In this document: piece after piece, positions 3,166-62,584 of the stretch | Layout: each line of letters opens with the position of its first letter | Numbering within the stretch: position 1 is the first letter of the stretch | IMG/VR virus record: IMGVR_UViG_3300042294_003246 | From: a virus | Taxonomy: Duplodnaviria > Caudoviricetes | DNA length: 64,000 bases | Direction: 5' to 3' (one strand) | Translations under genes and position numbers: made by a program | The notes under the pieces: model-generated | What the model was told of the DNA's origin: nothing | The model's input: only the letters and a program-made list of their open reading frames with translations | Database searches by the model: none

Positions 3166-4029
3166 ATGAACAAGTTAATTAAAGAAGAAATACTAAGAAT
3201 AAATGAGTTAATGAATACAAAAATTCTTAACGAATCGGAATATAAAGAATGCTCAAGATTTTCAGATTCTCCACAGAAATTACTTGTTTGTAGAAAAATC
3301 GCATCACTTAAAAGTTGGTTACACAAAGACGATGGATTTGGAATGAAAAATGTTATAAATAATAAAATTGAAGATTTAAAAACCGACATTCCTCAAAACT
3401 TAAAACAACAATTTATTCAAGGGGCAAACTTATTGTATTCACTAAATAAAATAAATGAAAGACAAAGGGATTACTTTATAGATAATAAAGTTAATTCAGC
3501 TAAATTGGTATACATAAACGGTGATTGGCAATTAATTAATAAGTTAAACACAAACTATTCTGATTTGGCAGAAATGTTAACAGATATGATTTATAAAGGT
3601 GGAGATAGGGCTAGACCAATAATTCAAAATATTATTAGAGATCCTAAAGCTGCTTTGTCATCAATACAACCCAAAATAATAGAATTAGTTGATAAGTATT
3701 TTGAGGATCCTAATGTGTTAATTGACTATACAAAAAATATAGAAAGATCAACATCTATAGGTGAAATTGCTGAAAAACAAGTTGAAGATAAGTTAATCAC
3801 AAAAGGTTTTACAACCGATTACGCTGGAGGTAATGGCGATCTAATCGATATGTCTTTTGGGACAGATTTAATCATGACATCACCGGAATACGGGACAAAA
3901 ACAATCCAAGTAAAAAATTCTGAAAAGGCTTGGAATAAGTCTGATGAATATCCTTACGTTGATTGGGTTATAATTTCAAACCCTTTTACCATTTATGATA
4001 ATAAAACAAAGGAAGTTGTTGAATTATGA
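3166..4029 (+). CDS. Leader-bearing protein with C-terminal PD-(D/E)xK nuclease-like motif
   Basis: Leader MNKLIKEEILRINELMNTKILNE; C-terminal FGTDLIMT...TIQVKNS resembles a nuclease D...QxK motif. Confidence 0.5.
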   Translation: MNKLIKEEILRINELMNTKILNESEYKECSRFSDSPQKLLVCRKIASLKSWLHKDDGFGMKNVINNKIEDLKTDIPQNLKQQFIQGANLLYSLNKINERQRDYFIDNKVNSAKLVYINGDWQLINKLNTNYSDLAEMLTDMIYKGGDRARPIIQNIIRDPKAALSSIQPKIIELVDKYFEDPNVLIDYTKNIERSTSIGEIAEKQVEDKLITKGFTTDYAGGNGDLIDMSFGTDLIMTSPEYGTKTIQVKNSEKAWNKSDEYPYVDWVIISNPFTIYDNKTKEVVEL

Positions 4030-4586
4030 AAATAATAATATCAGAACACCAATTTAATTTTCTTAACGAAAGTGATGTTAATAGAAATATTGATGCTATC
4101 AAAAAGTATTGGAAAAGTGAATTGAAAAAAGGAAATCAAATTAGATTTAATAAAGACGAACTTGAATATTGGGGTATTATTAAAACTTCAGATGAAATAC
4201 ATGCTCAATTAGCATTTCAGATATTAGTTGGAGATGAGGAGTTCGCTAAAAAATTCATAAACAAATTATTAAATAAAACATTTTCAACAAAAGACTTTAG
4301 TGATAGAATTGTAGGTGGTTATGATTTTGAATGGATTATTACTCAAATGAATTATCAAGATTTTGATTTCTTTTTGTATGGTCAAACACTACCAGGTGGA
4401 ACTGTTAGTCTAATTATGATGGATGGTAGAAATCTGACTTTACAGGAAGCTTTAGAAGACGAAGATATTGGTTGGGAAATTCAAGAGGAAGTTAACAACG
4501 TTGTTCAGGACTGTATGAACGAAATAATTTTACCGGCCACAGGTTATGATGTAGAAGTTCCGGTTATTTATATTGCAGAAGAATGA
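4026..4586 (+). CDS. MKIIISE-leader family protein
   Basis: N-terminus MKIIISEHQFNFLNES; ATGA overlap with the upstream gene. Confidence 0.75.
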   Translation: MKIIISEHQFNFLNESDVNRNIDAIKKYWKSELKKGNQIRFNKDELEYWGIIKTSDEIHAQLAFQILVGDEEFAKKFINKLLNKTFSTKDFSDRIVGGYDFEWIITQMNYQDFDFFLYGQTLPGGTVSLIMMDGRNLTLQEALEDEDIGWEIQEEVNNVVQDCMNEIILPATGYDVEVPVIYIAEE

Positions 4587-4969
4587 AAATAATAATTTCA
4601 GAACGACAACAAAAGTTATTAACCGAGTCAAAAAAACTTGAGTCGGCACAAAATCTTATTGATCAGGCATTTGAGGAATTAAGAGAAAACTGTGAAAAAA
4701 ATTGGGTTGAACAATATGCTTGTGATCAAATGGAAACCGTTGAAGAGATTAAAGTTGTTGCATCTGAAAAAGGATCAGCGACCACAAGAGGTCAAAAAAC
4801 TAATTTTTGGTTGATTGAAGTTGACATATATTATTCATCATTAGGATATACACCTTTTGAAGATTTTATTTATCAAATCCAATGGGAAGTTAGAGAAATT
4901 GTCGGATCAAGAAATATTATTATAACCATCCGAGGTACTATAAACTCAAACAAAGACCTAAACTGGTAA
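4583..4969 (+). CDS. MKIIISE-leader family protein
   Basis: N-terminus MKIIISERQQKLLTES. Confidence 0.75.
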   Translation: MKIIISERQQKLLTESKKLESAQNLIDQAFEELRENCEKNWVEQYACDQMETVEEIKVVASEKGSATTRGQKTNFWLIEVDIYYSSLGYTPFEDFIYQIQWEVREIVGSRNIIITIRGTINSNKDLNW

Positions 4970-5412
4970 TGAAAATAATAATATCAGAATCACAATATAA
5001 TTTACTTTTAGAATCAAAGTTGAAACAAAATCTTAAACAGGAAATTAAAGATTTTGGAGTAAAAGATACTGCTGAACTTGTTAATGGTTTCGATAATTTA
5101 ATGGAAATTTTAAACATAAATTCTCCGATGGATTTTTTACATTTGTTTGATGACTTGGATGTTGTTCAAAGTGAAATGGACCCTGATTGGACTTTATTTC
5201 GATATAAACCAAAACATAATTTGATGGTTCACAATAGAAAAAATAGAACTGTTTTCATTAATTACGAAGAAATTTGGAAACCTTTATTTGATACTGGTCT
5301 TTTCGATCCTGACATAAAGGAACTTACAAAAGAGTGGTTGTCTAGTGTCTACAACTTAAGGGGAGTCACAACCGAAAGGTTTTATCAAGCTTCTCCATGG
5401 TTAGTTGTCTAG
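4969..5412 (+). CDS. MKIIISE-leader family protein
   Basis: N-terminus MKIIISESQYNLLLES; body similar to ORF 34982. Confidence 0.75.
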   Translation: MKIIISESQYNLLLESKLKQNLKQEIKDFGVKDTAELVNGFDNLMEILNINSPMDFLHLFDDLDVVQSEMDPDWTLFRYKPKHNLMVHNRKNRTVFINYEEIWKPLFDTGLFDPDIKELTKEWLSSVYNLRGVTTERFYQASPWLVV

Positions 5413-5437
5413 TGTCTACAATTTAAAAAAATAGAAT

Positions 5438-5839
5438 ATGAAAATAATAATTACAGAATCACAAGTTAGTCTTCTCAAAGAAAATTCCATTGTGGATATG
5501 GATCTTCAACAACTATATGACAGGGCCATAAAATTAAAAAAAGTGGTTTCTAAAAATGTCCAAAGAGAGTTGGAAGATTATTCTTGGTTTGATGGATTAC
5601 AGGTAAGTATTGATAGAGATTGGGGAGGACTACCTTATTATTTTTTTAACATAAAAACAAATTTGTCCCTAACAGAGGATGAATTTTATAGTCAAGAATT
5701 AGGTGATGAAATTTATGATAAAATTGGTGATGTTTTTGGTCACTTTTTTCCAGAGGTTAATAAAAATACACAATATAACTTAACTGGTGTTTGGGATGCT
5801 TCTATAACAGACAGACATGGTTATGTAACTCACATTTAG
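5438..5839 (+). CDS. MKIIITE-leader family protein
   Basis: N-terminus MKIIITESQVSLLKEN. Confidence 0.75.
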   Translation: MKIIITESQVSLLKENSIVDMDLQQLYDRAIKLKKVVSKNVQRELEDYSWFDGLQVSIDRDWGGLPYYFFNIKTNLSLTEDEFYSQELGDEIYDKIGDVFGHFFPEVNKNTQYNLTGVWDASITDRHGYVTHI

Positions 5840-5854
5840 AACTATTTATTTAAT

Positions 5855-6544
5855 ATGAAAATCATCATTTCAGAAGATCAACAAAAAGTATTACTTGAAT
5901 CAAAACAAATTGATTCAGTTCAAAATCTTGTTGATATGGCGGTTGAAGATTATGTTGAAGGTTGTTCTAGAAGACATGCATTTAGAAATCTTGAACTTGC
6001 ACTTTGTAAAGGGTTCAAGAACGGAACAACAAAACTTAAAGTTTTAGAAGTAAAAAAAATACACGACCATTATGATGTAAAACTTTCTATACACACAGAT
6101 CAAGAATGGTTTCAAAGAGCGGACTTTCAAGATTTTGAAATCACATTAATACTTAAAGTTGCAAATATAATAGGAACACACAAATATGGGTTTGATATTA
6201 AGGACATGGAATTAAATGATCGTGATGAAGAAGTGATTTCTGAAAGTCGTGAAATGAGTACTAAACTAAGACGAAGATTTAGTGAACTTGAAAAAATTGG
6301 AGAGTCAATAGAGTATCAAACTGAAATACAAGATCCATGTGATTTTGAGGATGAGAATGACTATGCTGACTATTGTATTGGACAAGGACTTTATTTTTAT
6401 TACAACGATGATGAAGATGAAGACTATGAATATCCACCAGACGAAATGGTTGAGGTTAGAGATGAGGTAGAAGAATATTTAGAAGAAAAATACCACAATT
6501 ATTTAGTAGATATTTATAATGACTTAGTAGAAAACTGTAACTAA
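5855..6544 (+). CDS. MKIIISE-leader family two-module protein
   Basis: N-terminus MKIIISEDQQKVLLES; internal EVISESRE junction; TATTTAT at 5843-5849. Confidence 0.75.
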   Translation: MKIIISEDQQKVLLESKQIDSVQNLVDMAVEDYVEGCSRRHAFRNLELALCKGFKNGTTKLKVLEVKKIHDHYDVKLSIHTDQEWFQRADFQDFEITLILKVANIIGTHKYGFDIKDMELNDRDEEVISESREMSTKLRRRFSELEKIGESIEYQTEIQDPCDFEDENDYADYCIGQGLYFYYNDDEDEDYEYPPDEMVEVRDEVEEYLEEKYHNYLVDIYNDLVENCN

Positions 6545-6849
6545 TGAAAATACTATTAACAGAAAAACAGGCCGATAGAATATTCAACGAAAAGATTGAA
6601 TGCGAAAAGTGCGAACACTCTTGGAAAAAAGAAAATGATGACAAACATCCATTTCTTTGTCATGATTGTGGGTGGGACCAAAAAAAAGGTCTTTACGATA
6701 AAGAAAACTTATTTAAGTTTTGGAAAGGAAAATTATCTAAAGAACCAATTGAAGAAAAGTGGTCTGAAAAATATAAAAGATCAATCAACTGTAATAACCC
6801 AAAAGGTTTTAGTCAAAAGGCTCATTGTCAAGGGAGAAAGAAAAAATAA
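6544..6849 (+). CDS. Leader-bearing small Zn-ribbon protein with basic C-terminal module
   Basis: MKILLTEKQADRIFNEK; CxxC...CxxC; terminal IEEKWSEKYKRSINCNNPKGFSQKAHCQGRKKK. Confidence 0.7.
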   Translation: MKILLTEKQADRIFNEKIECEKCEHSWKKENDDKHPFLCHDCGWDQKKGLYDKENLFKFWKGKLSKEPIEEKWSEKYKRSINCNNPKGFSQKAHCQGRKKK

Positions 6850-12771: not shown

Positions 12772-13689
12772 ATGAAAGTTTCACTTACAGAAGAACAATT
12801 TCAAAGAATCCAAACTAAATTCGTTTATGAAAGTATTATAGATGACATGGTGTTCAAACTATCATTAATCATAGAGAATGATGGTAAAACCGAACCAGAC
12901 ATGGAATGGGACTTTGAAAATGTTAAAAAGGATATTGATTTAGCAAAATCTTGGGTTCAAACAAAAGAAGATGCCAAAGAGTTTTTACAGACTTTGTCTA
13001 ATAAAATAAAAAACCTACCTTCTCAAATTAAAAGAAAAATTATCAAATATGTGATTTTTTCTTTAATTGGTCTTATTAGTATTGGACAAATAAAAAATTA
13101 TTTAGAACCACCACTTGAAACTGCAGTTAAACAAGAAAAAGAAATTATTAAAAATGTCGTTAAGGATTTAAGGATTAGAAAGTCATCAGACAAATTATTA
13201 AATCATTTAAAATGGGAAGAAGGTTCAATAATCCATAAAGGTGAACCAGTATTAACGGCTTATAATCTTGGTGATGGTGCAAAAACAATTGGTTATGGTC
13301 ATGCTGTGTTTCCTGATGAAGAAGAATCGTTTGAATTTCTTCCAAGATATAATAAAATCATTTCAGGTAAAACCAAAATCACAAAAGAACAAGCAGAAAC
13401 ACTACTTAAAGACGATATTAAAGAGGCAGAAAGTATTATCAATAGAATACTAGATCAGTGGGAAGAACAAGGAATTACGCCACCAATAACTCAAAGTATG
13501 TATGATGCAATGGTGTCTATGGCATACAACATGGGACCTGGTATTAGAACATCCGATTTTATCCAATATGTTAAACGAGGTGATTTGGAAGGGGCAAAAA
13601 AGGAAATACTAAACACAAGTTCTCACATGTTTAACGAATACCCTGGTTTGAAAACAAGACGAGAAAGAGAATATAAAATGTTTGGGTAA
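12772..13689 (+). CDS. Leader-bearing protein with C-terminal GH24 phage-lysozyme domain
   Basis: Leader MKVSLTEEQ...FVYES; EEG...AYNLGDGAKTIGYGH, YDAMVSMAYNMG, GLKTRREREYKMF; TATTTATA at 12761-12768. Confidence 0.85.
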   Translation: MKVSLTEEQFQRIQTKFVYESIIDDMVFKLSLIIENDGKTEPDMEWDFENVKKDIDLAKSWVQTKEDAKEFLQTLSNKIKNLPSQIKRKIIKYVIFSLIGLISIGQIKNYLEPPLETAVKQEKEIIKNVVKDLRIRKSSDKLLNHLKWEEGSIIHKGEPVLTAYNLGDGAKTIGYGHAVFPDEEESFEFLPRYNKIISGKTKITKEQAETLLKDDIKEAESIINRILDQWEEQGITPPITQSMYDAMVSMAYNMGPGIRTSDFIQYVKRGDLEGAKKEILNTSSHMFNEYPGLKTRREREYKMFG

Positions 13690-15609: not shown

Positions 15610-15704
15610 AATACAAATATAGTGAAAATCTTTCAAATAATAACATAAACATCATAAACTTTCATTGGCCCAAACCTAATTATTTTTTTGTCGTATTTAT
15701 GTGT

Positions 15705-16760: not shown

Positions 16761-16769
16761 AATAAAAAA

Positions 16770-17905: not shown

Positions 17906-17914
17906 AATTGATAT

Positions 17915-20504: not shown

Positions 20505-20577
20505 ACAACAAAGATACAATTTTAAATGAAATAAATTACTTTTTTCATAAATAAATTTTCTAAAGTATTTATATGAT

Positions 20578-23415
20578 ATGAGAGATTTAATAATTCAAGT
20601 AATAACTGAAGAATCTAAAAAACTACTTAAAGAAAGTGGTATCAGAGATATTAAAAAACTTTCCAAAAGATATCAAATGGCCAAAATCTATTTTCATCAA
20701 GATTTAGATGGAGTTACCACGGCATTGGCAATGAAAAACTATTTGGAAAACAACGGAATCAAAGTTGTTGATGCCGAAATTATTCAATATGGATCAAAAG
20801 AGTTTGCAATTCATAAACCTGAAGGTGAAGGTGATATAATGCCAGTCTTAGTGGATTTTGCTCACGGTAAACCGATGTTTGTAATTCACACAGATCACCA
20901 CGACACTCAAGCTGGTGTAGAACAGGGAACATCAACAAACTTCAAACCATCAAGATCGAATGTTGAAACAATTTCACAATCAATTTCACCAAGAGATATT
21001 TTTAGTCAAGACGATATCGAAACAATTTCTATGATTGACTCAGCAGATTTTGCAAAACATGATATTACTCCACAACAAGTTTTGAAATATCTATTCCAAG
21101 TGGATAAAACAAAAGGAGTTAAAGAAAATAAAAAAATGATGGGACTTGTTGCTAACAAGTTATTATTAGCGTTTAAAAACAAACCTGGGTTTTTGAAAAA
21201 GTTAGTTATGGATGCAAAACCATCACTTCAGAGTATTTTATTAAATATAAAAGATATAATGGAAAAAGAAGGTTATGCGTCAATAGACCAATTGATAAAA
21301 AACCAAGAGTCCTATATTGAATCAAGAAAAGAAAAAGGTGTTACTTATGAAGATGGTATTATTTCACAATATACATTAGGACCAACGCAAAAATCAGGTG
21401 GATATGATCGTTACACACCATTCATCAATCATCCTGACGCTGAGTTCTTAGTGACAGGACTTCCAATGGGAATGGTTCAAGCATCTTGTAATCCATATAA
21501 AAAAGAAAGAGCGTTAAAGGGTGTTGATTTAGGTGAAATAAAAAATGAGGTATTAGAAAAGTTTAGACCTGAATTAGAAAAACAAAGAATTTCATTTGGA
21601 ACACTTAAAAGAATATCAGAAATGGACTCTGATAAAACTTCAGTTGGATTTACATTTAAAGACTTTTTAGCAATATATGGAAATTCACCATCTTTGAAGA
21701 TTTATGGGACAGAAAAACTTGAAAAATATCTTGATTACATGTCAAAAAAACTTTTCAAATCAATACCTGCGGAAGATAGAAAAGTATTTAACAAGGCTTC
21801 TGTAAATGGTTATGATGTTATTATGGCTAATTCAGGAGGACATAAATGTATTACAAATATTTCTGGTATTAACTATCTATACTCTAATTCTAAGTTCCAA
21901 GAACCTGAACAAAGAGTTAGAGAATCTTATGTTGATTTGTTAAAAGACATTCAGGCTGAGTTTGTAAAAACTTTAAAAGAAAAAATAAAGTCTTCCACCA
22001 AAATACAAGAAAAATACATTACTAAAAAAAAAATATTAAGTAGCCCAACATCAATTCTTCTGAACCCAAAAAACCTAATAAAAGAACAAAAAATTAGTTT
22101 ACCATTAATAATTAAAGATGGATATTCAGCACCCAAAGGGGATGCTGATGCTCTTCACTCATTTGAAAGAAGAAAAAAAGATGGTTTTGGGGGTAAAATG
22201 ACAACAAAAATTGGAGAAAAGTTAAAAGAAATTTACAACGCAGGAATCAATCCCGACGTTGTGAATATAAACATAACAGTAGACTCTAAAAATTATACGG
22301 TTCAGTGGGAAGCAACTTTGGATGAAAGTCAAGATGGAAATGCTTACATGGGAGTTTCAACAAGAGGATCTGCAGGTGGTGGGGCCGATATTAGAGCGTT
22401 GGGTCAAGTAGGACCATTAAAAAAAGAATTAGAAAAAATGGGAGCAAGAAACATTACACAAGTTTTAGACTTTAATAATAAGTCAGGAGTAAAAATCAGA
22501 CAATATTTCTTTAAATACACTTTACCTGAAAAATATCCACCACATGAAACATCAGAAGGTTTATATTCTAAAACGACAGAACCGTCAGTTATTAACTTAT
22601 CCGACGACAAATCTTTAGAAACAAATCAAGGACAACTTGTTGGTGATATTTTAAATTTTGGATCGTTGAAGTCTAATCTTAGTCAAATACTTAAAAACAA
22701 GATTGGTTCGTTGTTTGGATCCAAAGAAACATCAGATGAGGACGATACTAAATCAACACAGACATCAACCGCGACGGTTTCTCAAACATCAGGAAGTGAT
22801 TCAGATTTTATGGAAATCACAAAAAAAGTGATTGCCAATTTTGAGGGCGGATATTGGAACGGATCAACGTCAAAAAATGAGAGCACAAGTAAATTAGGAA
22901 TTTGTAAAAATCACCCGAAGGGAAGTATGGGTTCATCAACAGAAACTATGTTCGGGTTAGATAGATATAACGGTAACATAGAAAGCACCCCTGAGGGTAA
23001 ACAATTTTTTGAAATTATAGACAACCAAAAAGAAGAATTGGGAATGGACGCTTTTTGTAAAAAATGGAAATGGTTATATCGAGGTGGTGAAAACGAAGAG
23101 GAATTAAAAGAATTGGCCGCTAAAATAATGAAAAGATCATTTGATAGAAATATGTCAAATTTTGTTAAAGACCAAGAAGTCAAAGACAAAATTATGAAAA
23201 ACAAAGGGCTTTTGGTTCATATGACTTATGCGTGTTGGAATGGACCTGGTTTCTTCAAAAAGTTTGCAAATGAATTAACCGATGCCGTAAAACAAGGGAA
23301 ATCTGACTCAGAGTTGATAGATGTTGCGATTAATTCAAGGGCAAACACAAAATTGTTAAATAAAGATAAAGTGGCGGCGGCAATTAAAAATCCCGACGGA
23401 ATGAAGACCGCTTAA
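20578..23415 (+). CDS. Leader-bearing multidomain protein: DHH-like phosphoesterase, unknown domain, GH108-like lysozyme
   Basis: Leader MRDLIIQVITEESKKLLKES; HQDLDG...VDFAH...TDHHD; internal NLIKEQ junction; C-terminal FEGGYWN...TMFGLD; TATTTATA at 20566-20573. Confidence 0.7.
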   Translation: MRDLIIQVITEESKKLLKESGIRDIKKLSKRYQMAKIYFHQDLDGVTTALAMKNYLENNGIKVVDAEIIQYGSKEFAIHKPEGEGDIMPVLVDFAHGKPMFVIHTDHHDTQAGVEQGTSTNFKPSRSNVETISQSISPRDIFSQDDIETISMIDSADFAKHDITPQQVLKYLFQVDKTKGVKENKKMMGLVANKLLLAFKNKPGFLKKLVMDAKPSLQSILLNIKDIMEKEGYASIDQLIKNQESYIESRKEKGVTYEDGIISQYTLGPTQKSGGYDRYTPFINHPDAEFLVTGLPMGMVQASCNPYKKERALKGVDLGEIKNEVLEKFRPELEKQRISFGTLKRISEMDSDKTSVGFTFKDFLAIYGNSPSLKIYGTEKLEKYLDYMSKKLFKSIPAEDRKVFNKASVNGYDVIMANSGGHKCITNISGINYLYSNSKFQEPEQRVRESYVDLLKDIQAEFVKTLKEKIKSSTKIQEKYITKKKILSSPTSILLNPKNLIKEQKISLPLIIKDGYSAPKGDADALHSFERRKKDGFGGKMTTKIGEKLKEIYNAGINPDVVNINITVDSKNYTVQWEATLDESQDGNAYMGVSTRGSAGGGADIRALGQVGPLKKELEKMGARNITQVLDFNNKSGVKIRQYFFKYTLPEKYPPHETSEGLYSKTTEPSVINLSDDKSLETNQGQLVGDILNFGSLKSNLSQILKNKIGSLFGSKETSDEDDTKSTQTSTATVSQTSGSDSDFMEITKKVIANFEGGYWNGSTSKNESTSKLGICKNHPKGSMGSSTETMFGLDRYNGNIESTPEGKQFFEIIDNQKEELGMDAFCKKWKWLYRGGENEEELKELAAKIMKRSFDRNMSNFVKDQEVKDKIMKNKGLLVHMTYACWNGPGFFKKFANELTDAVKQGKSDSELIDVAINSRANTKLLNKDKVAAAIKNPDGMKTA

Positions 23416-23429: not shown

Positions 23430-23849
23430 ATGAAACAAAAAATTAGAAAAATATTAAAAGAAGAAGACGGGGGACTCAAAGAAAGATTTCTCAGAAATAT
23501 GAAATCACTTGAGTATATTATTCAAAGTAATGTGAATAATGATATTGAAGAAATTGAATTTGTTGATGTTGATTTTTACGAAAGATATAAAGATATCACT
23601 GCAACAATTAAAGTCAAATCTTATTGTGAGGATCCTGACATTTATGAATTATCTACCCAAATGAAAAAAGTTGAAGATCAAATTTACCAAATTATCGGAA
23701 AATACGAATTTTCAAAAAACGGTAAATTGAATAAAGTTGATGGTGATAGTTATCTCATGTTTTTTGCTATTAAAGTAAATTGGGAAAGTAATAATGGTGA
23801 ATTATATATTGAATTTTATTTACACCAAGATGATTATAGAACTGAATAA
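23430..23849 (+). CDS. ILKEE-leader family protein
   Basis: MKQKIRKILKEED. Confidence 0.7.
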   Translation: MKQKIRKILKEEDGGLKERFLRNMKSLEYIIQSNVNNDIEEIEFVDVDFYERYKDITATIKVKSYCEDPDIYELSTQMKKVEDQIYQIIGKYEFSKNGKLNKVDGDSYLMFFAIKVNWESNNGELYIEFYLHQDDYRTE

Positions 23850-42381: not shown

Positions 42382-42723
42382 ATGAAAATCAACGAAGAAT
42401 TAAACCAAATCAAATATCTTTTAGAGTATAAAAGAGGACAAGAAATTAACGAAATGGTTTTTTCTAATTTACCCGGTGTTCAGCCTGATAAAATGGATTA
42501 TAGAAGACCAATACCTGATCCTGATATTATACCTGATTGTTTTACTCAAATGTTAAAATCAGATTTAAACATGGTTTCTTTTGATAAAAACACGTTAAAA
42601 GATGAATCACAAAAAAGAGTTAATGGTGTTGATATGATTTTTAATCCTGATAGTCCATCTGACGAATTGGGTATTACAATAATAAAAGATGGAAAACCTT
42701 TTTGTTTTGTAAAAAAATTTTAA
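42382..42723 (+). CDS. MKINEEL leader family protein
   Basis: Start ATG 42382: MKINEELNQIKYLLEYKRGQEINEM; TATTTAT at 42371-42377. Confidence 0.7.
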   Translation: MKINEELNQIKYLLEYKRGQEINEMVFSNLPGVQPDKMDYRRPIPDPDIIPDCFTQMLKSDLNMVSFDKNTLKDESQKRVNGVDMIFNPDSPSDELGITIIKDGKPFCFVKKF

Positions 42724-42775: not shown

Positions 42776-43288
42776 ATGGGAAGAAAAATTAGACTTACAG
42801 AATCTGAATTTCATTCTTTAGTAAGAAGACTTGTTCGTGAGGCTGAAGAAGAAATGATGTCAATTACAATGGATGATGAAGAATCCGAAGGAATGTCAAA
42901 AGAAGACACCGTTCATGCGGTTGCTGACTTCTTTAAAAGAAAATTAAGAAGATTAGATAGTGACGAAATCGAAGAACTTGAGGATATGGTTGTTAATTCT
43001 GAAACAGAAGATCTAACTGAAATGTTTTTAAGAGAAGACATTTCTGATAGAAAAAAATCTTTTAAAGAAAAGGCAATGATTCGTGGTGGAATTGGTATGA
43101 TGGGAGCAGGAATACTTGGAATGATTAGTCAAGCAATGGGTTATACTGATGCTGGAGACCTTATGATTGCGGTTCACGATTACGTTGACAAAATGGGTGG
43201 TGGTCCTGTGAGCACCGCAGTATTAATTGCTGGTTTAGTTATGGCACTTAAAGGTGCTGCTGACAGAGGCCTTAGAACAGGAAGATAA
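42776..43288 (+). CDS. TESEF leader protein with C-terminal hydrophobic Gly-rich hairpin
   Basis: MGRKIRLTESEFHSLVRRLVREA; two hydrophobic segments near the C-terminus; TATTTATA at 42753-42760. Confidence 0.7.
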   Translation: MGRKIRLTESEFHSLVRRLVREAEEEMMSITMDDEESEGMSKEDTVHAVADFFKRKLRRLDSDEIEELEDMVVNSETEDLTEMFLREDISDRKKSFKEKAMIRGGIGMMGAGILGMISQAMGYTDAGDLMIAVHDYVDKMGGGPVSTAVLIAGLVMALKGAADRGLRTGR

Positions 43289-48297: not shown

Positions 48298-48825
48298 TTA
48301 GATTCCTTTAATAAGGTTTATTGATTGTTTTAGGTATTCTTTAGCTCTTGGGGACGGAGTATATTCATCATCCTTAGTTTGAAGGTTTAAAACCCTTTCA
48401 ATGTCCTTAACTAACTCAGTTCCGTGTTCATTTTCTTTATATAACTCGATGATCTTATCCATGGCTTTATTGCATTCACCTGTAGTCTCGTCATAATAGT
48501 TTTTATTCCTAAACTTATTCAAATGATTCATCATTTCATATGCCAAATGTGTTCCACCGTCTTTAATGTCTTTAAACAAACGGATATTATTCAAAATCCC
48601 TAAAGTATCAACCATAGAGTTAACCCCTGTAATTCTTTTGGTAATCCCTGGTGTGTATTTATCAAATTCACCCGCTCTCCCGACTATTTCGTCTAGAGGC
48701 ATAACATTTTCAGGAATACACTTAGGTTTTTCCTTTTTATTTTTTTTTCCTTCCATTTCGTTTTCTAAAAGAACTTTTCTAATGACTCTATTTAGGTCAC
48801 GGTTATTAAATTGATTTCGTTTCAT
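48298..48825 (-). CDS. Leader family protein
   Basis: MKRNQFNNRDLNRVIRKVLLENE. Confidence 0.65.
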   Translation of the reverse strand: MKRNQFNNRDLNRVIRKVLLENEMEGKKNKKEKPKCIPENVMPLDEIVGRAGEFDKYTPGITKRITGVNSMVDTLGILNNIRLFKDIKDGGTHLAYEMMNHLNKFRNKNYYDETTGECNKAMDKIIELYKENEHGTELVKDIERVLNLQTKDDEYTPSPRAKEYLKQSINLIKGI

Positions 48826-48879: not shown

Positions 48880-49251
48880 ATGAAAAATATTAATGACATT
48901 ATAAGGAAAGTATTGATTGAGTCATTTTTAAGACCTAAGTTTATTTTTGAGGATTTCTATGGGTCGGTTGAAGATGTTGATTTTTTAAATGAAGCCGAAT
49001 ATCAAGGAAGAAAAGTTCAACTTGGTAAAATAATGCAGGGTGACGTAAAAAAGTTTAAGGTTTATGTTAAAAATGACAAAGGTAAAGTTGTTAAAGTTAA
49101 TTTTGGTTTTGGTGGTAAATCAGCAAAAGGGAAAAGAATGGTTATTAAAAAAAATAACCCAGAAAGACGACGATCTTTCAGAGCAAGACACAATTGCGAT
49201 AATCCTGGACCAAGATGGAAACCAAGATATTGGGCTTGTAGAACTTGGTAA
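48880..49251 (+). CDS. Leader-bearing basic Cys-containing protein (DUF6321-like)
   Basis: MKNINDIIRKVLIES...FLNEA then EYQGRKV...KVNFG...RRSFRARHNC...RYWAC; family name from recollection; TATTTATA at 48853-48860. Confidence 0.6.
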   Translation: MKNINDIIRKVLIESFLRPKFIFEDFYGSVEDVDFLNEAEYQGRKVQLGKIMQGDVKKFKVYVKNDKGKVVKVNFGFGGKSAKGKRMVIKKNNPERRRSFRARHNCDNPGPRWKPRYWACRTW

Positions 49252-49315: not shown

Positions 49316-49903
49316 ATGGAGAGTTATAGATATGACTCATTAGTTCGACAGATTATAAAGGATATTGTTCTTATGTATAAAAAAGAATCTGACGGGCATT
49401 TTTATTTACCCTACGATGTTGATGAAGAGTCTGACGAATACGACTTTAAAGACATATTTGTTTCTGTTGAATTAATTTTGGAAGAGTCAAATACGGTTGA
49501 CGATTTTTTATTAAACGCCGATTTTTATCCCGATGATGATACTATTGTTGTAAAAATAGTATATAATCCAGAATTTAAAACTAAAAATATCTACAACATG
49601 GTCGGAGAATTAAACGAACTCATTGCACACGAACTTAGACATAGTCACCAAAAAAATACCGGTCTATTTGATTTGGATTCTGACATGGATGTTGATGAAG
49701 AAAAAGGTTTCGAGTATTATACAAGACCTGAGGAAATTGACGCTCAATATTACGGATTCAAAAGAATGTCAAAAATCACAAAAAAACCTTTCGATGAATT
49801 AGTTAAAAATTGGTTCAAAAAGTATAAGGATGTTCATCAAATGGATGATTCTGAAGTTGAAGAAACTGTATCGATGATATTAAATTACAGACCTAAGATT
49901 TAA
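49316..49903 (+). CDS. Putative zinc metallopeptidase (HExxH)
   Basis: LIAHELRHSHQ and downstream YYTRPEEIDA; likely start ATG 49316. Confidence 0.6.
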   Translation: MESYRYDSLVRQIIKDIVLMYKKESDGHFYLPYDVDEESDEYDFKDIFVSVELILEESNTVDDFLLNADFYPDDDTIVVKIVYNPEFKTKNIYNMVGELNELIAHELRHSHQKNTGLFDLDSDMDVDEEKGFEYYTRPEEIDAQYYGFKRMSKITKKPFDELVKNWFKKYKDVHQMDDSEVEETVSMILNYRPKI

Positions 49904-50513
49904 ACCTATCTATAATCTTTTTGACTAGCATATAAACAATATGTGATGTAAAAATCCCGCCTAAATAGTGTCCTACACCCATCGCTAATAATTTAATTTG
50001 TTTTTCACCTATTGATAAATCTGAAAGATCTTTCAATATTGGAACTAATGGGACCAAAAACGTGTAGGCGATCATATTAGAGACTTTTGAAAAAGTTAAA
50101 TTCAAACTTTCTAAAAAACCGAAAAGAGCATCTCTTAAATCATAGGATTTTGAAAGTGCTCTATCAAAAAACGTAATTAATTTTTTTTCTTTTATTAGTT
50201 CTAACACCTCACGTAATTTTTCCTTATTCGAGGAAAAAAAAGTTAAAATTATACCAAAAGATATTAGGGTTATGTCTGTTTCTGTTAGGTTTGGATATCT
50301 ACCACTCATATATTTTGAAACAGGTCCCACAAATCCCCCTATTACAGAACCCCAAGTTCCCAAAAAAACAAAATCAATTCCAAATTGTTTTTTTACGTCT
50401 TCGATAATTTTTTTTGTAAAGTTTTTCGAATTAGTAAAAATATCCGACATGGCATTTTCTTTAGATTCTTGTAGAACTTTAATGTATTGCGATTCTGTTA
50501 AAATTATATCCAT
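49893..50513 (-). CDS. MDIILTESQ-leader hydrophobic protein
   Basis: MDIILTESQYIKVLQES; several hydrophobic segments. Confidence 0.7.
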   Translation of the reverse strand: MDIILTESQYIKVLQESKENAMSDIFTNSKNFTKKIIEDVKKQFGIDFVFLGTWGSVIGGFVGPVSKYMSGRYPNLTETDITLISFGIILTFFSSNKEKLREVLELIKEKKLITFFDRALSKSYDLRDALFGFLESLNLTFSKVSNMIAYTFLVPLVPILKDLSDLSIGEKQIKLLAMGVGHYLGGIFTSHIVYMLVKKIIDRFKS

Positions 50514-50625: not shown

Positions 50626-51240
50626 ATGAATTCATACTTTTTTAAAATGAACAAACAAGAAAGAGAGAACATCTTGGATCAACATAAACATGTATATGAT
50701 GGTTATGTAACAAAATACAATCAACAATCAAACCAATATCCTCTTTATGTTCAGGATTTGGCAAATGATAAAAATGGTATTACGGTAAATAATAAAGGAT
50801 TGGTTAAGACTTATACTAACGTAGGTATTAATGAAGGTCTTTTAGATATGATTGCCGATGGGCCTATGGACTTAGAAAACGGAACGATAGATATTGATAG
50901 TGTGAGTCAAACAAATTCAATCAATAAAAAAATGTTGGACCAATATTATCCATCACCCAACGAGGAAGAAGAAGAATTTGTAACCTATGGTAAAATCTCA
51001 GATGAAGAGGACATACCAAACACAAGCTTACAAAACTTAGATAGGTTTGAATATGATATTGACGAACTTGAGGACTATTCAGCGAGCAAAGATTATGACA
51101 ATACAGACGAAGAATATTTAACTTACAGTGAAAGACTACAAGATACACTACAAAATGTTGATGAAGAAATACTACCTGAATTAGTTCAACAATTGTATGA
51201 GTCGAGACACATGTTCGAAAGATTCAAAAAATACAACTAA
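50626..51240 (+). CDS. Acidic protein with ERENILDQH leader-like N-terminus
   Basis: MNSYFFKMNKQERENILDQHK; GINEG and LYES junctions; TATTTATA at 50603-50610. Confidence 0.65.
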   Translation: MNSYFFKMNKQERENILDQHKHVYDGYVTKYNQQSNQYPLYVQDLANDKNGITVNNKGLVKTYTNVGINEGLLDMIADGPMDLENGTIDIDSVSQTNSINKKMLDQYYPSPNEEEEEFVTYGKISDEEDIPNTSLQNLDRFEYDIDELEDYSASKDYDNTDEEYLTYSERLQDTLQNVDEEILPELVQQLYESRHMFERFKKYN

Positions 51241-53846: not shown

Positions 53847-55139
53847 ATGGAAAATTTAAAAGAACAACTTAACAGAATCAAATTATTATACAACTATAAT
53901 TTGAACGAAACTTATGAAGAAAACAAAATTAAACAGTCGTCCAAAAACTATTTGAATGAGGCTGCTGCCGAGGCCCTAATCGCAGCCAAGGAGTTGGGGA
54001 ACGCAGAAAGAGCCATCCTACATAATAGTTTAGAAACTGTAGTTGCCGATATAGGTGCAGTCACTATTAAAAATGAGAAAGGAATTTTTTCATCAACAAA
54101 AAATGTCGAAGAAATAGTGTTGGCGATGAAAGAAGGAAGAATTGCGGGTGCTGAGTTAGGTAATATTGGTAAGTCTCTCTTAAAAAGCCCGGCAACAAGC
54201 ACAGAGATTAAATCATTAGCAGCCGAACTGGTAACATCATTTCCATCTTTTGAACAAAAATATGGTATGTTAACAAGAGAACAAGCCGTAAACGAACTAA
54301 TGAATGGTCCTGGAAAATATACAAAAGGTGAAGCAGAAACTCTTATGAATAAGTATAAGTCGAGAAAAAGTCGAGTTGATCCAATCGAGCCCCCTAAGAC
54401 AGGTGAAGGACCGAAACCAAGTGAAGGACCGAAACCAAGTGAAGGACCGAAACCAAGTGAAGGACCTGTAAATCAAAATAATATCAACCTCAATATAACT
54501 AACCAAGTTCAATCCGAGGGATTTAAAATTGCGGAAGAGTATGGACCTCACATGGATGATGCAGCAAGAAAAAGAAAATGGAAAGACTCTCAAGATTGGT
54601 TAAAAAATGACGAAAGAGGGTTTATGGAAGAATATAATAGAGTTAGTAAGGGATCAAGACTTAGAAGAGGTCTTAATTGGGGTCGAAAAATTATGTCTTG
54701 GGGAACTCTTTGGGGAATATTTAAAATTGCGGGAATAGGTCTAACTTTATGGGCCGTATATAGTTTATTTACAGATAGTGGATGGAAAGTTAAAGACGAT
54801 GATAAAATAGATGATGATGACGGCGGAGGCGGCGGCGGAGACGATGACGGAGGAGGTGGAGGATCACCTGATGACGACCAAAACCAAGGAGTGTTGATCG
54901 ACGTTGATGGTAATAAATATATAGAATGCACACCACCTTATTATAAGGGTTGTGTCGCTAAAAAAGGAAATGACGACATAAGAAAGGCTCAAGATTGTTT
55001 GGGTGTAACACCTAATGGTTTCTTTAATAAAGAAACAGAAGACGCATTATATAAAAAAATAAACAAGAAAAGTTTTAGTCCATCAGATATGCCATCGATA
55101 TGTGCGACGAGTTATGGGGCTAGTAGATTCTCTTATTAA
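53847..55139 (+). CDS. MENLKEQL-leader protein with TM segment and C-terminal PG-binding-like domain
   Basis: Leader MENLKEQLNRIKLL...YLNEA; EGPKPS x3; TM; DDIRKAQDCLGVTPNGFFNKETEDAL. Confidence 0.65.
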   Translation: MENLKEQLNRIKLLYNYNLNETYEENKIKQSSKNYLNEAAAEALIAAKELGNAERAILHNSLETVVADIGAVTIKNEKGIFSSTKNVEEIVLAMKEGRIAGAELGNIGKSLLKSPATSTEIKSLAAELVTSFPSFEQKYGMLTREQAVNELMNGPGKYTKGEAETLMNKYKSRKSRVDPIEPPKTGEGPKPSEGPKPSEGPKPSEGPVNQNNINLNITNQVQSEGFKIAEEYGPHMDDAARKRKWKDSQDWLKNDERGFMEEYNRVSKGSRLRRGLNWGRKIMSWGTLWGIFKIAGIGLTLWAVYSLFTDSGWKVKDDDKIDDDDGGGGGGDDDGGGGGSPDDDQNQGVLIDVDGNKYIECTPPYYKGCVAKKGNDDIRKAQDCLGVTPNGFFNKETEDALYKKINKKSFSPSDMPSICATSYGASRFSY

Positions 55140-55153: not shown

Positions 55154-56917
55154 ATGGATATTTCAAAAAAACTAACACAAATCCTATTAGAACAAGAAGC
55201 TAGTAAAGAAACTAAAGGAGTTAATGTCTCCGATACAGGTAAAGTATTGCAAAATACTATTAATTTTTGCCAAGGTATATCTTTTCTAAAAGATAAGGCG
55301 ATTAAGTCTATGAGTAGAACATCACCAAAAGATACAACTAGCGGACAACCATTAATGGCTAAATTCAAAGATGTTTATAACTCGGGTAAAGAAAGTGTTG
55401 CCTTTGCTTCCGGAGACGATGGTAGTGGAAATATTATAGTTGTTTTTGGTATGCAAGATCCGAACTTAACAGATCAAGCATTATTAGGATACAGAGTTAC
55501 AACAGGAGCAGTTGCCGACAGGATAACTGACGGTATTGCAAAAGGGTGTCAATATTTACAAAAAATAGAAGATGTGGGACAAGCACAACTTTCGGCTTAT
55601 GATAGATCTAGACTTGATGCTTTTATTAAAAAACAAGGTGGTTTATTTACCTCAACTGATCCGAAAGATCCGTTGAACTATAGAGAATATAAAATGAAGA
55701 ATCTCAAAGACGCTGACGGATTACCTTTATTACAAAGTCCAGGTGAAGGTATTGTTTGGAAAAAAGTCGAACAAGATCAAGGAACTATGGGTGATGTTGC
55801 AGGTGAAGTTGATGACTTTATGAAAGAACAAGGATTTACAAAAAACAAACCAAAGGCAGGAACCGATGAAGCAAATTATGGGTTTTATCTAAAAGACGTT
55901 CAAGGAGATTTACCATCATTAAGTATTGATCCTGATATCAGAAATACAGGAATATATTTCCCTGACCCAAGTTATACAAGTGAATACGGTGGTTCAGTTT
56001 TGACTCCTGATAGAAAGGCTTGTAAATCTGTAATTAAAAGACTTTACGATTGCAAAACAAAAACAAACAAAGCAGGATGTTCCGCAAATCTATTTAGAGA
56101 TAAGTTTATTGCTCTTTCGTGTGGTGATAAAAACTTTATCGAAGGTCCTTTTGGAAAAGGAGATGAATATAAGGCAATTTTTTCAGATCCAGGTCCATAC
56201 GGATTGGCAAATCTAAACAGAGCAAGAGGTAAAGCGAAGTATTCTTCAATGACAGAATCTCTTAACAAAAAAATCAACAAAAGATTAAACGAAGATTTCA
56301 AAAGACTTTCTTTTAATAAAAAAAAAATTCAATTTGACAATCAACTAGTTGAGTCATTAGCAGATCAGTTGGTTGTAAGTGCATTATTCGACTTACAAAA
56401 AGATTTCAAAAAATTCCAAAGATTGGATGAAAATGCAATAACCGATTTTCTATCTAGTGCTGGAAGTAAAGCTTTAGAAGGCGGAAAAAACTTAGTTAGT
56501 AATTTAGGAAGTAAATTGGGAACGGGTCTAAGTCAAGGATTTAAAGAGACGATCGCAAAAAAAATAATTGGCTGGGCAGGTTTCGACCCAAATGGTTATT
56601 TCGCTCTTTTAATCGCTAATATTTTTGCAAATCTTGAATTTAAGGATTATATGAATTTTATTAGTGATTGTGAAAAGTTTAGTGAAATTATTACAAAATC
56701 AGCGTTAGAGGCGTGGTTAGATAAAGCAGTTGTATCAATGAAAGGTGGTGAAGCTGGAACTATATCAACTTTTGTTTATACGGCCCTAAAAAATACCGTA
56801 ACTGAGGCAGCAGCAAACACACCAGCATTTAGAGCATTAGAAGGGATGGCAACCAAAATTGTTTGTGGAATTATAGAAGGTGTAAAAGAGAGCGGGATTA
56901 TTACAAGTTTTTTCTAA
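55154..56917 (+). CDS. Leader-bearing multi-module protein
   Basis: MDISKKLTQILLEQ; internal MTES...RLNED...LVES...LDENA. Confidence 0.65.
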   Translation: MDISKKLTQILLEQEASKETKGVNVSDTGKVLQNTINFCQGISFLKDKAIKSMSRTSPKDTTSGQPLMAKFKDVYNSGKESVAFASGDDGSGNIIVVFGMQDPNLTDQALLGYRVTTGAVADRITDGIAKGCQYLQKIEDVGQAQLSAYDRSRLDAFIKKQGGLFTSTDPKDPLNYREYKMKNLKDADGLPLLQSPGEGIVWKKVEQDQGTMGDVAGEVDDFMKEQGFTKNKPKAGTDEANYGFYLKDVQGDLPSLSIDPDIRNTGIYFPDPSYTSEYGGSVLTPDRKACKSVIKRLYDCKTKTNKAGCSANLFRDKFIALSCGDKNFIEGPFGKGDEYKAIFSDPGPYGLANLNRARGKAKYSSMTESLNKKINKRLNEDFKRLSFNKKKIQFDNQLVESLADQLVVSALFDLQKDFKKFQRLDENAITDFLSSAGSKALEGGKNLVSNLGSKLGTGLSQGFKETIAKKIIGWAGFDPNGYFALLIANIFANLEFKDYMNFISDCEKFSEIITKSALEAWLDKAVVSMKGGEAGTISTFVYTALKNTVTEAAANTPAFRALEGMATKIVCGIIEGVKESGIITSFF

Positions 56918-57975: not shown

Positions 57976-58089
57976 ATGGAAGACATACATCAACAAATTC
58001 ACGAGGAGTTTATTAACTCTGAAGATTATGATAAGTATCTTTATGATATTTATAATTATGAACCTCAACGAACAGATCCACAGGATTAA
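57976..58089 (+). CDS. Possible small acidic protein (37 aa)
   Basis: Manual translation MEDIHQQIHEEFINSEDYDKYLYDIYNYEPQRTDPQD, preceded by TATTTATA. Confidence 0.35.
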   Translation: MEDIHQQIHEEFINSEDYDKYLYDIYNYEPQRTDPQD

Positions 58090-58528
58090 AAACTTGATGT
58101 ATGAACAACCACAAGTCCAAATTGTATATAAAGGTGATTTAGATGGATACTTTGGAAAAAACATTGAGTTAACGTCTCCTGATAATAATACTATTGGTTT
58201 TATCCATATATCCAAAATGAATGATGGTGAAAATTTAGATCTGAACTTCAATACTTTATATGACGAATCCAAGTTTCAAACCATTCCATTAAATTATGAT
58301 AATTGTCTTTTTATGCACACTTTAGAGGTGGATGAAAACCATAGAAAACAGGGACATGGGTCACACTTATTAGATTTGGCACATGAATTTGCAAAAAATA
58401 ACGGATATAATTATCTATCTTTTATTTCTGATAATGATAATGAAATTGCAAACAACATTTATCAAAAAAGAGGTTATAAGTCATTAAATTCTAATGACAA
58501 TTCTAGTTTTTATTTTGTTGAATTGTAA
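58058..58528 (+). CDS. MNLNEQI-leader GNAT acetyltransferase
   Basis: Start ATG 58058: MNLNEQIHRIKNLMYEQ; LEVDENHRKQGHGSHLL; NEIANNIYQKRGY; TATTTATA at 58047-58054. Confidence 0.8.
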   Translation: MNLNEQIHRIKNLMYEQPQVQIVYKGDLDGYFGKNIELTSPDNNTIGFIHISKMNDGENLDLNFNTLYDESKFQTIPLNYDNCLFMHTLEVDENHRKQGHGSHLLDLAHEFAKNNGYNYLSFISDNDNEIANNIYQKRGYKSLNSNDNSSFYFVEL

Positions 58529-61487: not shown

Positions 61488-61510
61488 CAAACAATTAAAA
61501 AGGAGATAAA

Positions 61511-61966
61511 ATGAACCGAGTATTTAGAAAGGTTGATGGAAATCCAGTTTCTGACATATCAAAACACACTTTGGATATTTTAAATGAATGTCCTTATGTT
61601 GAAATTCATGTTGGAACTGATTCTCAAAACCACAGAAGATCGACTGTATATGTAACCGCAATAGCATATCGGTATGGAAACCGCGGAGTTCACTATATAT
61701 ATCACAAACATAAGGTTAAAAAAATTCGTGATAAGTGGACAAGGTTATGGAATGAAGCCGATTATTCAATTGAGGTTGCAAACTTTTTAACAAGTAAGGT
61801 GAATGTTAAACTTGAGATTGATCTTGATTATAACGCTCAAGAACAACACTTTAGTTCAAAGTTGGTTGGTCCTGCGGTTGGGTGGGTTAATTCTTTGGGT
61901 TATAAGGCGAATATTAAACCTGATAACCAAATTGCAACAAAGGCGGCAGATTTTCATTGTCGTTAA
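61511..61966 (+). CDS. RNase H-like YkuK (DUF458) family protein
   Basis: HVGTDSQ, RLWNEADYSIEVA, EIDLDYN, KAAD; has an AAGGAG Shine-Dalgarno site, rare in this window. Confidence 0.8.
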   Translation: MNRVFRKVDGNPVSDISKHTLDILNECPYVEIHVGTDSQNHRRSTVYVTAIAYRYGNRGVHYIYHKHKVKKIRDKWTRLWNEADYSIEVANFLTSKVNVKLEIDLDYNAQEQHFSSKLVGPAVGWVNSLGYKANIKPDNQIATKAADFHCR

Positions 61967-61968
61967 TT

Positions 61969-62040
61969 GGTCGGGTGTCTGATAGGTAAAGTCCAGATCT
62001 GCAAAATCTCGGTATGTGGGTTCGAATCCCACCCTGACCT
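61969..62040 (+). tRNA. tRNA-Cys(GCA)
   Basis: GGTCGGG/CCTGACC acceptor, loop CTGCAAA, U73. Confidence 0.9.
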
Positions 62041-62048
62041 CAACAAAT

Positions 62049-62122
62049 GCCCCTATGGCGGAATTGGCATACGCATGTGATTTAGGATCACAATTTTGCA
62101 GGTTCGAGTCCTGCTGGGGGCA
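62049..62122 (+). tRNA. tRNA-Leu(UAG) with short variable loop
   Basis: GCCCCTA/TGGGGGC acceptor, TGTGA-TTTAGGA-TCACA, 5-nt variable region. Confidence 0.85.
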
Positions 62123-62194
62123 CAAAAAATAGTATATATACTAAATTTTAGATTTTTTCTAAAATAATAACTTTTTGATCTCATATTTATTAAT

Positions 62195-62584
62195 ATGAAA
62201 AAAATAATAAGAATTACAGAATCTGATTTGACTAACATAGTTAAACGAGTGATTAAAGAAAATGAAAATAATAGATTAGGTAAAGTTTATTTCAATAACG
62301 AGAATTATCCTGGATTTATGTATGTTAAAGAAATATTACCTAAATATCAAATGTATTGGGTTGGGACTATGACAAATGAAGTATTACCTACTGAATTAAT
62401 AAAAGATGATGATATGGATATCTATTGGTTAGAATCACCCGATGGTAAAACATTTGGTTACGAACTTTTTGAAGATGATTTAAAAGGTAAAAAATATTTA
62501 GTTTTAGATTTAGTTGACCCACAAGAAATTGAGAAATATCTAAGAAATGGCGGTGAATGGTTCCCAAGTCACTACGAGGCGTAA
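62195..62584 (+). CDS. MKKIIRITESDL leader family protein
   Basis: MKKIIRITESDLTNIVKRVIKEN; TATTTAT at 62184-62190. Confidence 0.75.
   Translation: MKKIIRITESDLTNIVKRVIKENENNRLGKVYFNNENYPGFMYVKEILPKYQMYWVGTMTNEVLPTELIKDDDMDIYWLESPDGKTFGYELFEDDLKGKKYLVLDLVDPQEIEKYLRNGGEWFPSHYEA

Follow-up and report, generated by a model that had tools for sequence, protein, structure and literature searches.

The 64,000-nucleotide stretch of Caudoviricetes DNA analyzed here (IMG/VR record IMGVR_UViG_3300042294_003246; the whole stretch is called the window) encodes 33 proteins that share short N-terminal leaders of 11-30 residues, and these leaders are read, with about as much confidence as reservation, as an expanded, multi-class counterpart of the capsid-targeting sequence (CTS) of bacteriophage T4. 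The internal proteins of T4 have N-terminal propeptides of 10-19 residues that serve as capsid-targeting sequences (PMC9026906, PMC3012670), and the T4 prohead protease gp21 cuts after L/I-x-E (PMC9026906). A corresponding pathway can be proposed from sequence comparison: the leader genes would be expressed late, with the structural genes; the amphipathic N-terminal helix would dock each new protein on the scaffolding core while the prohead is being assembled; a prohead protease of gp21 type (Peptidase_S77) would cut after the Glu of the terminal aliphatic-x-Glu, freeing the mature protein within the head; and at least part of the protein set may exit with the DNA at the next infection. The predicted cargo is hypervariable and would comprise lysozyme, LysM, peptidoglycan-binding, GNAT, M78-type peptidase and DHH-like proteins together with many of no known family.

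All 33 ORFs (open reading frames) that a preliminary description of the window had listed as sharing N-terminal leaders exist, with starts as described there. Their listed coordinates belong to real ORFs, but 48298 and 49893 mark where two minus-strand genes end, their starts being at 48825 and 50513. The start codon of 25182 is GTG, and 42382 and 58058 are ATGs within slightly longer ORFs. The leaders had been said to end in (I/L/V/F)-x-E, which is correct for 31 of the 33; 36698 and 50626 have no clear end of this kind. Five leader classes had been proposed, and five patterns are recognizable: class A, MKIIITE.Q..L.E; class B, MKKI.RLTESDL..IVKRVI.E; class C, M+.LI+.ILKE; class D, MNLQEQI.RI..MM..I.E; and class E, ..EEKNRI...H...YL.E. 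The leaders are nevertheless better described as a continuum or mosaic of interchangeable short modules, in which hybrids are present (35575 is A+B and 40228 is A+E, and D+C hybrids occur in relatives). Similarly, most of the bodies are unrelated, as had been stated, but several are paralogous (4969/34982/5438/24310, 6544/26238, 20578/53847 and 13689/25182). The 33 ORFs, with a slash at each candidate cut point, are:

3166..4029, plus strand, 287 aa: class D-like leader MNKLIKEEILRINELMNTKILNE/S
4026..4586, plus strand, 186 aa: class A leader MKIIISE/HQFNFLNE/S; first of six tandem class A genes
4583..4969, plus strand, 128 aa: class A leader MKIIISE/RQQKLLTE/S
4969..5412, plus strand, 147 aa: class A leader MKIIISE/SQYNLLLE/S; body paralogous to 34982 (class B leader)
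5438..5839, plus strand, 133 aa: class A leader MKIIITE/SQVSLLKE/N
5855..6544, plus strand, 229 aa: class A leader MKIIISE/DQQKVLLE/S
6544..6849, plus strand, 101 aa: class A leader MKILLTE/KQADRIFNE/K; Cys-rich body, related to 26238 (class C leader)
12772..13689, plus strand, 305 aa: A-like leader MKVSLTE/EQFQRI, then phage lysozyme domain
20578..23415, plus strand, 945 aa: leader MRDLIIQVITE/ESKKLLKE/S; weak DHH match; two-module fusion, with DIQAEFVKTLKE/K as an internal leader-like segment near residue 457 (about nt 21940-21990)
23430..23849, plus strand, 139 aa: class C leader MKQKIRKILKE/E
23849..24313, plus strand, 154 aa: class C leader MRNLIKQILKE/E
24310..25179, plus strand, 289 aa: class C leader MRELIRYILKE/S; body start related to the 34982/4969 family
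25182..26210, plus strand, 342 aa, GTG start: class C leader NQLRQHIKNVLVE/E; C-terminal half paralogous to leaderless gene 13689-14345
26238..27482, plus strand, 414 aa: class C leader MDLKQHIKNILKE/E
28363..28638, plus strand, 91 aa: class D leader MNLQEQISRIQEMMGVINE/Q
34982..35473, plus strand, 163 aa: class B leader MKKIVSITE/SQLTNIIKQVLKE/N
35575..35994, plus strand, 139 aa: hybrid A+B leader MKIIITE/DQYGQLTNLVKRVIRE/N
36698..37147, plus strand, 149 aa: A-like leader MKIIISKDQYRRVLLKF, no clear end
37487..38173, plus strand, 228 aa: class B leader MKKIVRLSE/SDLTRVVRRVINE/G
38206..38874, plus strand, 222 aa: class E leader ..LSNEEKNRIREQYE..KKLLE/S
39312..40220, plus strand, 302 aa: class E leader MKKNLFVLSE/NEKNRILNMHKSATKQNYVFE/Q, then Pro/Val-rich linker
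40228..40710, plus strand, 160 aa: hybrid A+E leader MKRLIITE/DEKKRIKLLYE/Q
41215..41559, plus strand, 114 aa: class B leader MKNNLTE/SDINRIVFDVINE/S
42382..42723, plus strand, 113 aa: class D leader MKINEELNQIKYLLE/YKRGQEINE/M
42776..43288, plus strand, 170 aa: class B leader MGRKIRLTE/SEFHSLVRRLVRE/A, then acidic linker
48298..48825, minus strand, 175 aa, start 48825: class B leader MKRNQFNNRDLNRVIRKVLLE/N
48880..49251, plus strand, 123 aa: class C leader MKNINDIIRKVLIE/S
49893..50513, minus strand, 206 aa, start 50513: class A leader MDIILTE/SQYIKVLQE/S
50626..51240, plus strand, 204 aa: class E-like leader MNSYFFKMNKQERENILDQHK, no clear end
53847..55139, plus strand, 430 aa: class D leader MENLKEQLNRIKLLYNYNLNE/T
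55154..56917, plus strand, 587 aa: C-like leader MDISKKLTQILLE/Q
58058..58528, plus strand, 156 aa: GNAT acetyltransferase with class D leader MNLNEQIHRIKNLMYE/Q
62195..62584, plus strand, 129 aa: class B leader MKKIIRITE/SDLTNIVKRVIKE/N; body orthologs elsewhere have other leaders

Two complete relatives, G007 (291,867 bp, 354 ORFs) and G003 (296,330 bp, 380 ORFs), were taken whole for comparison. Hidden Markov models (HMMs) trained on the window leaders were applied with a cut-off of 12 bits, the control being internal 40-residue segments that start with Met. This cut-off was reached by 135 of 852 N-termini from all gene sets versus 3 of 2,429 control segments, and the internal-Met controls rule out the leaders as a chance product of AT-rich composition. 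The survey of relatives with per-leader HMMs, which the preliminary description had proposed, matched 102 of 734 ORFs (59/354 in G007 and 43/380 in G003), and all of the N-terminal matches in these two genomes begin within the first few residues. For G007, a model-free count gave 137 protein pairs with at least 9 of 19 N-terminal residues in common, versus one pair for residues 41-60. The bare [ILVF]-x-E motif is weak by itself, being present at about 2% of all positions and only about twofold enriched in the first 20 residues. When the hydrophobic pattern of class B is required alone, the final residue is Glu in 28 of 30 sequences, with Asp and Gln once each; the residue two before the terminal Glu is I, L or V. 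The linker that follows this Glu is usually hydrophilic or acidic. A tblastn search of phages with a 26-aa leader found nothing meaningful, and a word-based search for leaders limited to residues 1-40 returned only three proteins.

The window itself is without head genes; the head module was read by walking contigs of a near-identical strain (99.7% identity to the window over 10.6 kb). The prohead protease that the preliminary description had suggested looking for elsewhere in the genome is present in this strain as a Peptidase_S77, in a module about 30 kb downstream that contains:

ClpB-like and Hsp70 genes
TerL
gp20-type portal interrupted by an intein (922 aa versus 603 aa in G007)
bS21
GIY-YIG/NUMOD3 homing endonuclease, inserted just before the protease gene
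240-aa Peptidase_S77 (PF03420) protease
acidic 494-aa scaffold-like protein
643-aa gp23-type capsid protein

The intein-bearing portal gene, the homing endonuclease gene and the chaperone genes are placed about 20-30 kb past the window end. Compared with the structure of T4 gp21 (5JBL), the protease gives a match at E 2.6e-14, and its catalytic triad is intact, the LNHP, SSRG and D motifs all being present; a Peptidase_S77 is encoded by five of five complete leader-bearing relatives (78-88 bits), and in G007 it is accompanied by matches to Portal_T4 (250 bits) and Gp23 (248 bits). A homolog search with the G007 protease returned 7,619 close matches. The capsid protein has the sequence ...NQASFLINE/ASSDG... 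immediately ahead of the block alignable to T4 gp23, which at that place has ...GSFLTE/AEIGG..., and the predicted site I-N-E/A is the motif that closes many of the leaders (VINE/, ILKE/, VIKE/). Two conserved genes beside the capsid protein gene themselves start with class C-type leaders, the first with MDRLSKIIKKVVSE/AT in the near-identical strain and MIERTIKNILKE/AT in G007, the second with MKNLNYIIRKVLLE/T; these leaders resemble the start of T4 gp24, MAKINELLRE/S. The expanded, modular, T4-like tag system put forward in the preliminary description is thus supported in those features that can be computed, namely a gp21-type protease, a T4-type head and modular N-terminal leaders, but its division into five classes and its wholly unrelated cargos require the corrections given above.

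The evidence that links the leaders to the protease would fit equally well if the leaders were prohead-core propeptides cut by the S77 protease from core, scaffold or internal-body parts that are retained, or else degraded and expelled before DNA packaging, and are not injected. T4 gp22, gp67 and gp68 are cut in this manner and mostly leave the head (PMC9026906), and many of the leader-bearing bodies are acidic, like the scaffold-like protein. This alternative is considered unlikely, on three properties of the cargo. The bodies are hypervariable among relatives, which is unexpected for assembly components: 12-17% of leader-protein bodies have a homolog between G003 and G007, versus 45-53% of other proteins, while the leaders themselves are conserved. 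Some bodies are enzymes (lysozyme, GNAT, M78 peptidase). The commonest family is predicted by AlphaFold2 (AF2) to be a compact folded domain. In the window, Pfam recognizes leader protein 12772 as a lysozyme and 58058 as a GNAT, and gives 20578 a weak DHH match. The Pfam matches of the 97 leader proteins of G003 and G007 are LysM (two proteins), lysozyme, GNAT, Pterin_4a, PAP2 and Peptidase_M78; searches of PHROGs and Pfam gave no match for most cargos. A holin plus VanY-type peptidase cassette is located elsewhere, apart from the leader-bearing lysozyme, which therefore is not needed as an endolysin for lysis. Transmembrane-like segments are found in 3% of leader proteins versus 10% of others.

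The same head module raises the possibility that the leader helix is a docking tag for some other shared partner, such as the phage's own Hsp70 and ClpB-type chaperones. The Hsp70 and ClpB-like AAA+ genes adjoin the head genes, a class B leader gene directly adjoins the Hsp70 gene, and the leader is modular, strictly N-terminal and structurally independent, as such a tag would be; in addition, the basic-flanked hydrophobic runs KKIIRL and RIVKRVI may resemble DnaK-binding and Clp N-terminal recognition motifs. A chaperone tag would leave unexplained the near-invariant terminal Glu with an aliphatic residue two before it, the match to the predicted maturation site of the capsid protein and the leaders on head-module genes, and it is judged quite improbable.

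In keeping with the favored reading, in which the leaders direct proteins to the prohead, the distribution of leaders and bodies indicates that the two recombine freely. No homolog among the three gene sets (window, G003 and G007) was found for the bodies of 58 of 120 leader proteins. Where bodies do form families, the leaders differ: the 4969/34982/24310 family is seen with A, B or C leaders, two G003 copies being leaderless, and the Cys-rich family is seen with A, B, C and D leaders. Among clusters of orthologs of the 62195 body, eight have the class B leader and seven have short N-termini quite unlike it, and the junction is at the same point in all fifteen. The 945-aa window protein starts with MRDLIIQVITEESKKLLKES, and its G007 ortholog (57% identical) starts with MKMVITESQYKRLLNES, a class A leader instead. 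In G003 the C-terminal half of this protein has a gene to itself, headed by a tandem class C leader that is alignable to the internal leader-like segment near residue 457 of the window protein, so that each separately encoded polypeptide has its own leader. The AF2 models of 62195 and 34982 place the leader in a helix apart from the cargo domain. In 62195, residues 1-30 form an isolated helix (pLDDT <50) ahead of a beta-rich body (whole model pLDDT 58); in 34982, the leader helix spans residues 9-19 (pLDDT about 64), with a kink at KE/NE, the predicted site, and a body pLDDT of about 90. A fold search with a model of the 34982 family (pLDDT 83) found nothing significant (PDB E >=0.19; in AFDB, weak Ulp/SENP-like matches with TM about 0.2), and a complex prediction for 62195 residues 1-45 with the 494-aa scaffold-like protein scored 0.00, both chains being poorly folded.

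Several bodies are paralogous, many of the genes are tandem, one 148-aa family has at least 12 members in G003, and the helix has a heptad-like hydrophobic stripe, all of which would be expected if the leader were a conserved structural or oligomerization helix spread by duplication and recombination in multigene families, with no sorting role. That most bodies are unrelated (58 of 120 are singletons), that orthologous bodies swap leaders at a fixed junction and that the helix is not packed on the body in AF2 models make this explanation doubtful, to the same degree as a chaperone tag; a position strictly at residue 1 and a linker of hydrophilic residues likewise argue that the leader is an independent module. 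As to the copies themselves, the 148-aa leader-bearing family (4969 and 34982 in the window) is dispersed or tandem in G003 (for example at 78977, 116814, 166712, 238754-242671 and 283644), and the prohead protease gene is immediately preceded by one of the copies. A class D leader is found internally at residue 314 of a 423-aa G003 ORF (117830-119101), before a peptidoglycan-binding-like segment, and two class B matches occur in one 300-aa open frame of G002 (IMGVR_UViG_3300027712_000062) at 17425-17949; such internal copies are rare and are possibly fusions or polyproteins.

The leader genes have an upstream motif in common with structural genes. The oriented motif ATATTTAT (or RTATTTATA) ends 4-5 nt (the main peak) or 12-17 nt before the start codon of 17 of 33 leader genes versus 9 of 64 other genes in the window (Fisher p 2e-4), 29/59 versus 50/295 in G007 (p 5e-7) and 27/43 versus 58/337 in G003 (p 1e-9); its reverse complement, used as a control, is rare. 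Examples within 20500-62200 of the window are at 20560-20577, 35555-35574, 58040-58057 and 62177-62194. The same motif precedes TerL, portal, scaffold-like, protease, sheath-like, fiber and other structural genes, from which it is inferred that the leader genes are probably co-expressed with them; in G007 the TAnnTTTG box of Bacteroidota type stands before 1 of 59 leader genes versus 30 of 295 others. Should ATATTTAT act as a -10-like promoter element, the 5' untranslated region of many late mRNAs would be absent or almost absent, which would be notable given that the phage has a bS21 ribosomal protein gene of its own.

Conservation of the leaders is exerted on the peptide. Codons at conserved leader residues vary freely (ATA/ATC/ATT, TCA/TCT/AGT, TTA/CTT/CTA, AGA/CGA/CGT), and among 2,315 pairs of identical residues from 28 class B leaders the same codon is used in 47%, versus 40% predicted from codon usage; the constraint therefore concerns the peptide and not DNA or RNA, and a DNA-level recombination site or an RNA signal is rejected as the function of the leader. 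A nucleic-acid signal in the shared 5' coding sequence, whether a translation-initiation enhancer for Shine-Dalgarno-less, bS21-modified ribosomes or a cassette recombination site, is suggested by the A/U-rich codons that open class A (AUG AAA AUA AUA AUA), by the phage bS21 and by an upstream motif only 4-5 nt from many start codons, but is largely refuted and very improbable, since synonymous positions are nearly as free as codon usage predicts and conservation spans 20-30 codons and tracks amino-acid properties, including the near-invariant Glu. A secretion signal peptide was also rejected: the leaders are charged and amphipathic and lack the hydrophobic core that follows the basic N-region in Sec, Tat and lipoprotein signals, and true signal peptides of the same genomes look unlike them (for example MKKLFVLLFMFL at 16770).

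Several points weigh against capsid targeting as in T4. The scale is far past any studied case, at 40-60 proteins per genome: 33 tagged proteins in 64 kb and 12-17% of ORFs, whereas the same test gives three in T4. T4 uses one decapeptide, whereas here there are several interchangeable and more conserved modules of 11-30 residues, and no leader similarity to the T4 CTS (MKTYQEFIAE) was found, the leader HMMs scoring below 10 bits on all T4 N-termini. Two of the 33 leader ORFs lack a clear cut site, a second hydrophobic-x-Glu is located inside class A and B leaders at residues 5-9, and aliphatic-x-Glu is common in a proteome rich in Lys, Glu and Ile (1.4-2% of positions). The bodies, unlike T4 internal proteins, are not basic (median pI 5.2); some cargos are large (945 and 587 aa); and one relative's cargo contains PAP2, usually a membrane domain. 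Finally, since the record of the window stops 6 kb past it, the head module was taken from the strain with 99.7% identity. The likeness of the leaders to the T4 CTS is, as far as sequences indicate, one of form and context, not of descent.

The window is AT-rich (about 31% G+C), with dense genes on the plus strand and 17 tRNA genes; genes of Bacteroidota type are present, among them one for a type IX secretion system (T9SS) CHU_C/SprB protein. It is identical (100%) to the 246.5-kb NCBI metagenome contig JBFDMU010002652.1 and shares 99.7-99.9% identity with ENA and JGI contigs as long as 297 kb; a megablast search of isolated phages with 12 kb of the window found no match, and searches of IMG/VR and of the genome collection with exact 40-mers did not recover the window. 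Past 62785 (62785-64000) the window departs from all three near-identical strain contigs aligned (L017, L018 and L180), and the order of the tRNA region is rearranged among near-identical strains. DNA-damage genes of the window comprise a UvrC-like GIY-YIG/RNase H endonuclease (14335-15636, minus strand), a UmuD-like S24 peptidase (18320-18637) and a Y-family polymerase (18601-19833). An 816-aa SprB/PKD/CHU_C protein with a type IX secretion signal and three smaller genes paralogous to consecutive parts of it are found in the regions 15699-17905 and 44454-46904; the protein and its partial paralogs indicate that the phage apparently uses the T9SS export signal of its host. Judging by gene content, size, tRNA number and the phage bS21 gene, the window phage is a member of the "bS21 phages", which are freshwater Bacteroidota phages of 293-331 kb (PMC9723584). 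A degenerate DNA pattern of the class B core was found in more than 118 IMG/VR stretches, many of them on contigs of 270-326 kb. In the Mahaphage records LR745206 and LR756502 the class B leader was not found and the S77 match was weak; half of the 945-aa protein is present.

It is proposed more tentatively, at somewhat less than even confidence, that in freshwater Bacteroidota bS21 jumbo phages about 15% of genes carry combinatorial address tags that load 40-60 hypervariable proteins per virion by way of a T4-type prohead core, as a ready-made arsenal, specific to the strain, of wall enzymes, modifying enzymes and probable anti-defense proteins. If so, new cargo could be recruited simply by gaining a leader, the system would be a viral counterpart of bacterial effector-secretion signals, and the leaders would serve as a sequence-only predictor of injected proteins in uncultured phages. 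If the tags load the capsid, very common lake phages would carry more types of cargo than any studied T4-like phage, and this cargo would be a natural place to seek new anti-defense and host-takeover functions. With modular tags that suit unrelated cargos, T4 protein-packaging technology could be made available for other hosts, and a large share of the ORFans found in the genomes of jumbo phages would be explained by the leader system.

No paper was found in the literature that describes such a large expansion, several interchangeable tags or occurrence in Bacteroidota phages, but several known systems are comparable in part. As with the T4 CTS, proteins that evolve fast and are otherwise unrelated bear a short N-terminal tag ending in aliphatic-x-Glu; the S77 protease is of gp21 type, the portal of gp20 type and the capsid protein of gp23 type; and the predicted maturation site of the capsid protein is aligned with that of T4. 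The internal proteins of T-even phages are diverse, with only the CTS conserved (PMC3012670). The model-free count used on G007 recovers the known CTS proteins of T4 (MKTYQEFIAE twice and MKTFKEFIKE once), together with homing-endonuclease paralogs. The system described here differs in its Bacteroidota host and in being known from sequence alone. In phiKZ-like giant phages (phiKZ, 201phi2-1 and SPN3US), ejection and inner-body proteins of the head are processed by a diverged gp21 homolog (PMC9026906, PMC10052503). The likeness consists in large capsids, tens of packaged proteins and propeptides cut after Glu by a gp21-related protease; several cut sites may be present in one phiKZ-like propeptide. 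Propeptides of that type are long, differ from one another and have the motif S/A/G-x-E, whereas the leaders described here have an aliphatic residue two before Glu and are nearly the same from cargo to cargo, which sets them apart from the phiKZ/SPN3US type. The cultured T4-like Flavobacterium phage vB_FspM_immuto (NC_055915), with an annotated S77 protease and gp23 head module and a host of the same phylum, also has small sets of shared N-termini: MKKQILSEQFxRMQxLAGIITE/S, clearly akin to class D, on two proteins; MKKSQLRxIIKExL on three; and MENFDLKKFLVENKLT, a further candidate leader family, on about five (for example 1803, 103806, 117631 and 118632), two of which are directly upstream of the terminase gene. 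The class B leader was not found in immuto, in which about ten proteins in three sets are tagged, versus about fifty here. By analogy only, the cargo-loading peptides of encapsulins are short terminal peptides that bring diverse cargo to one container, and these tags are usually C-terminal and uncleaved; the machinery of encapsulins and of secretion-effector signals is different, and the leaders described here are N-terminal. The closest parallel in principle is the textbook case of the T-even phages, whose diverse internal proteins share only a CTS.

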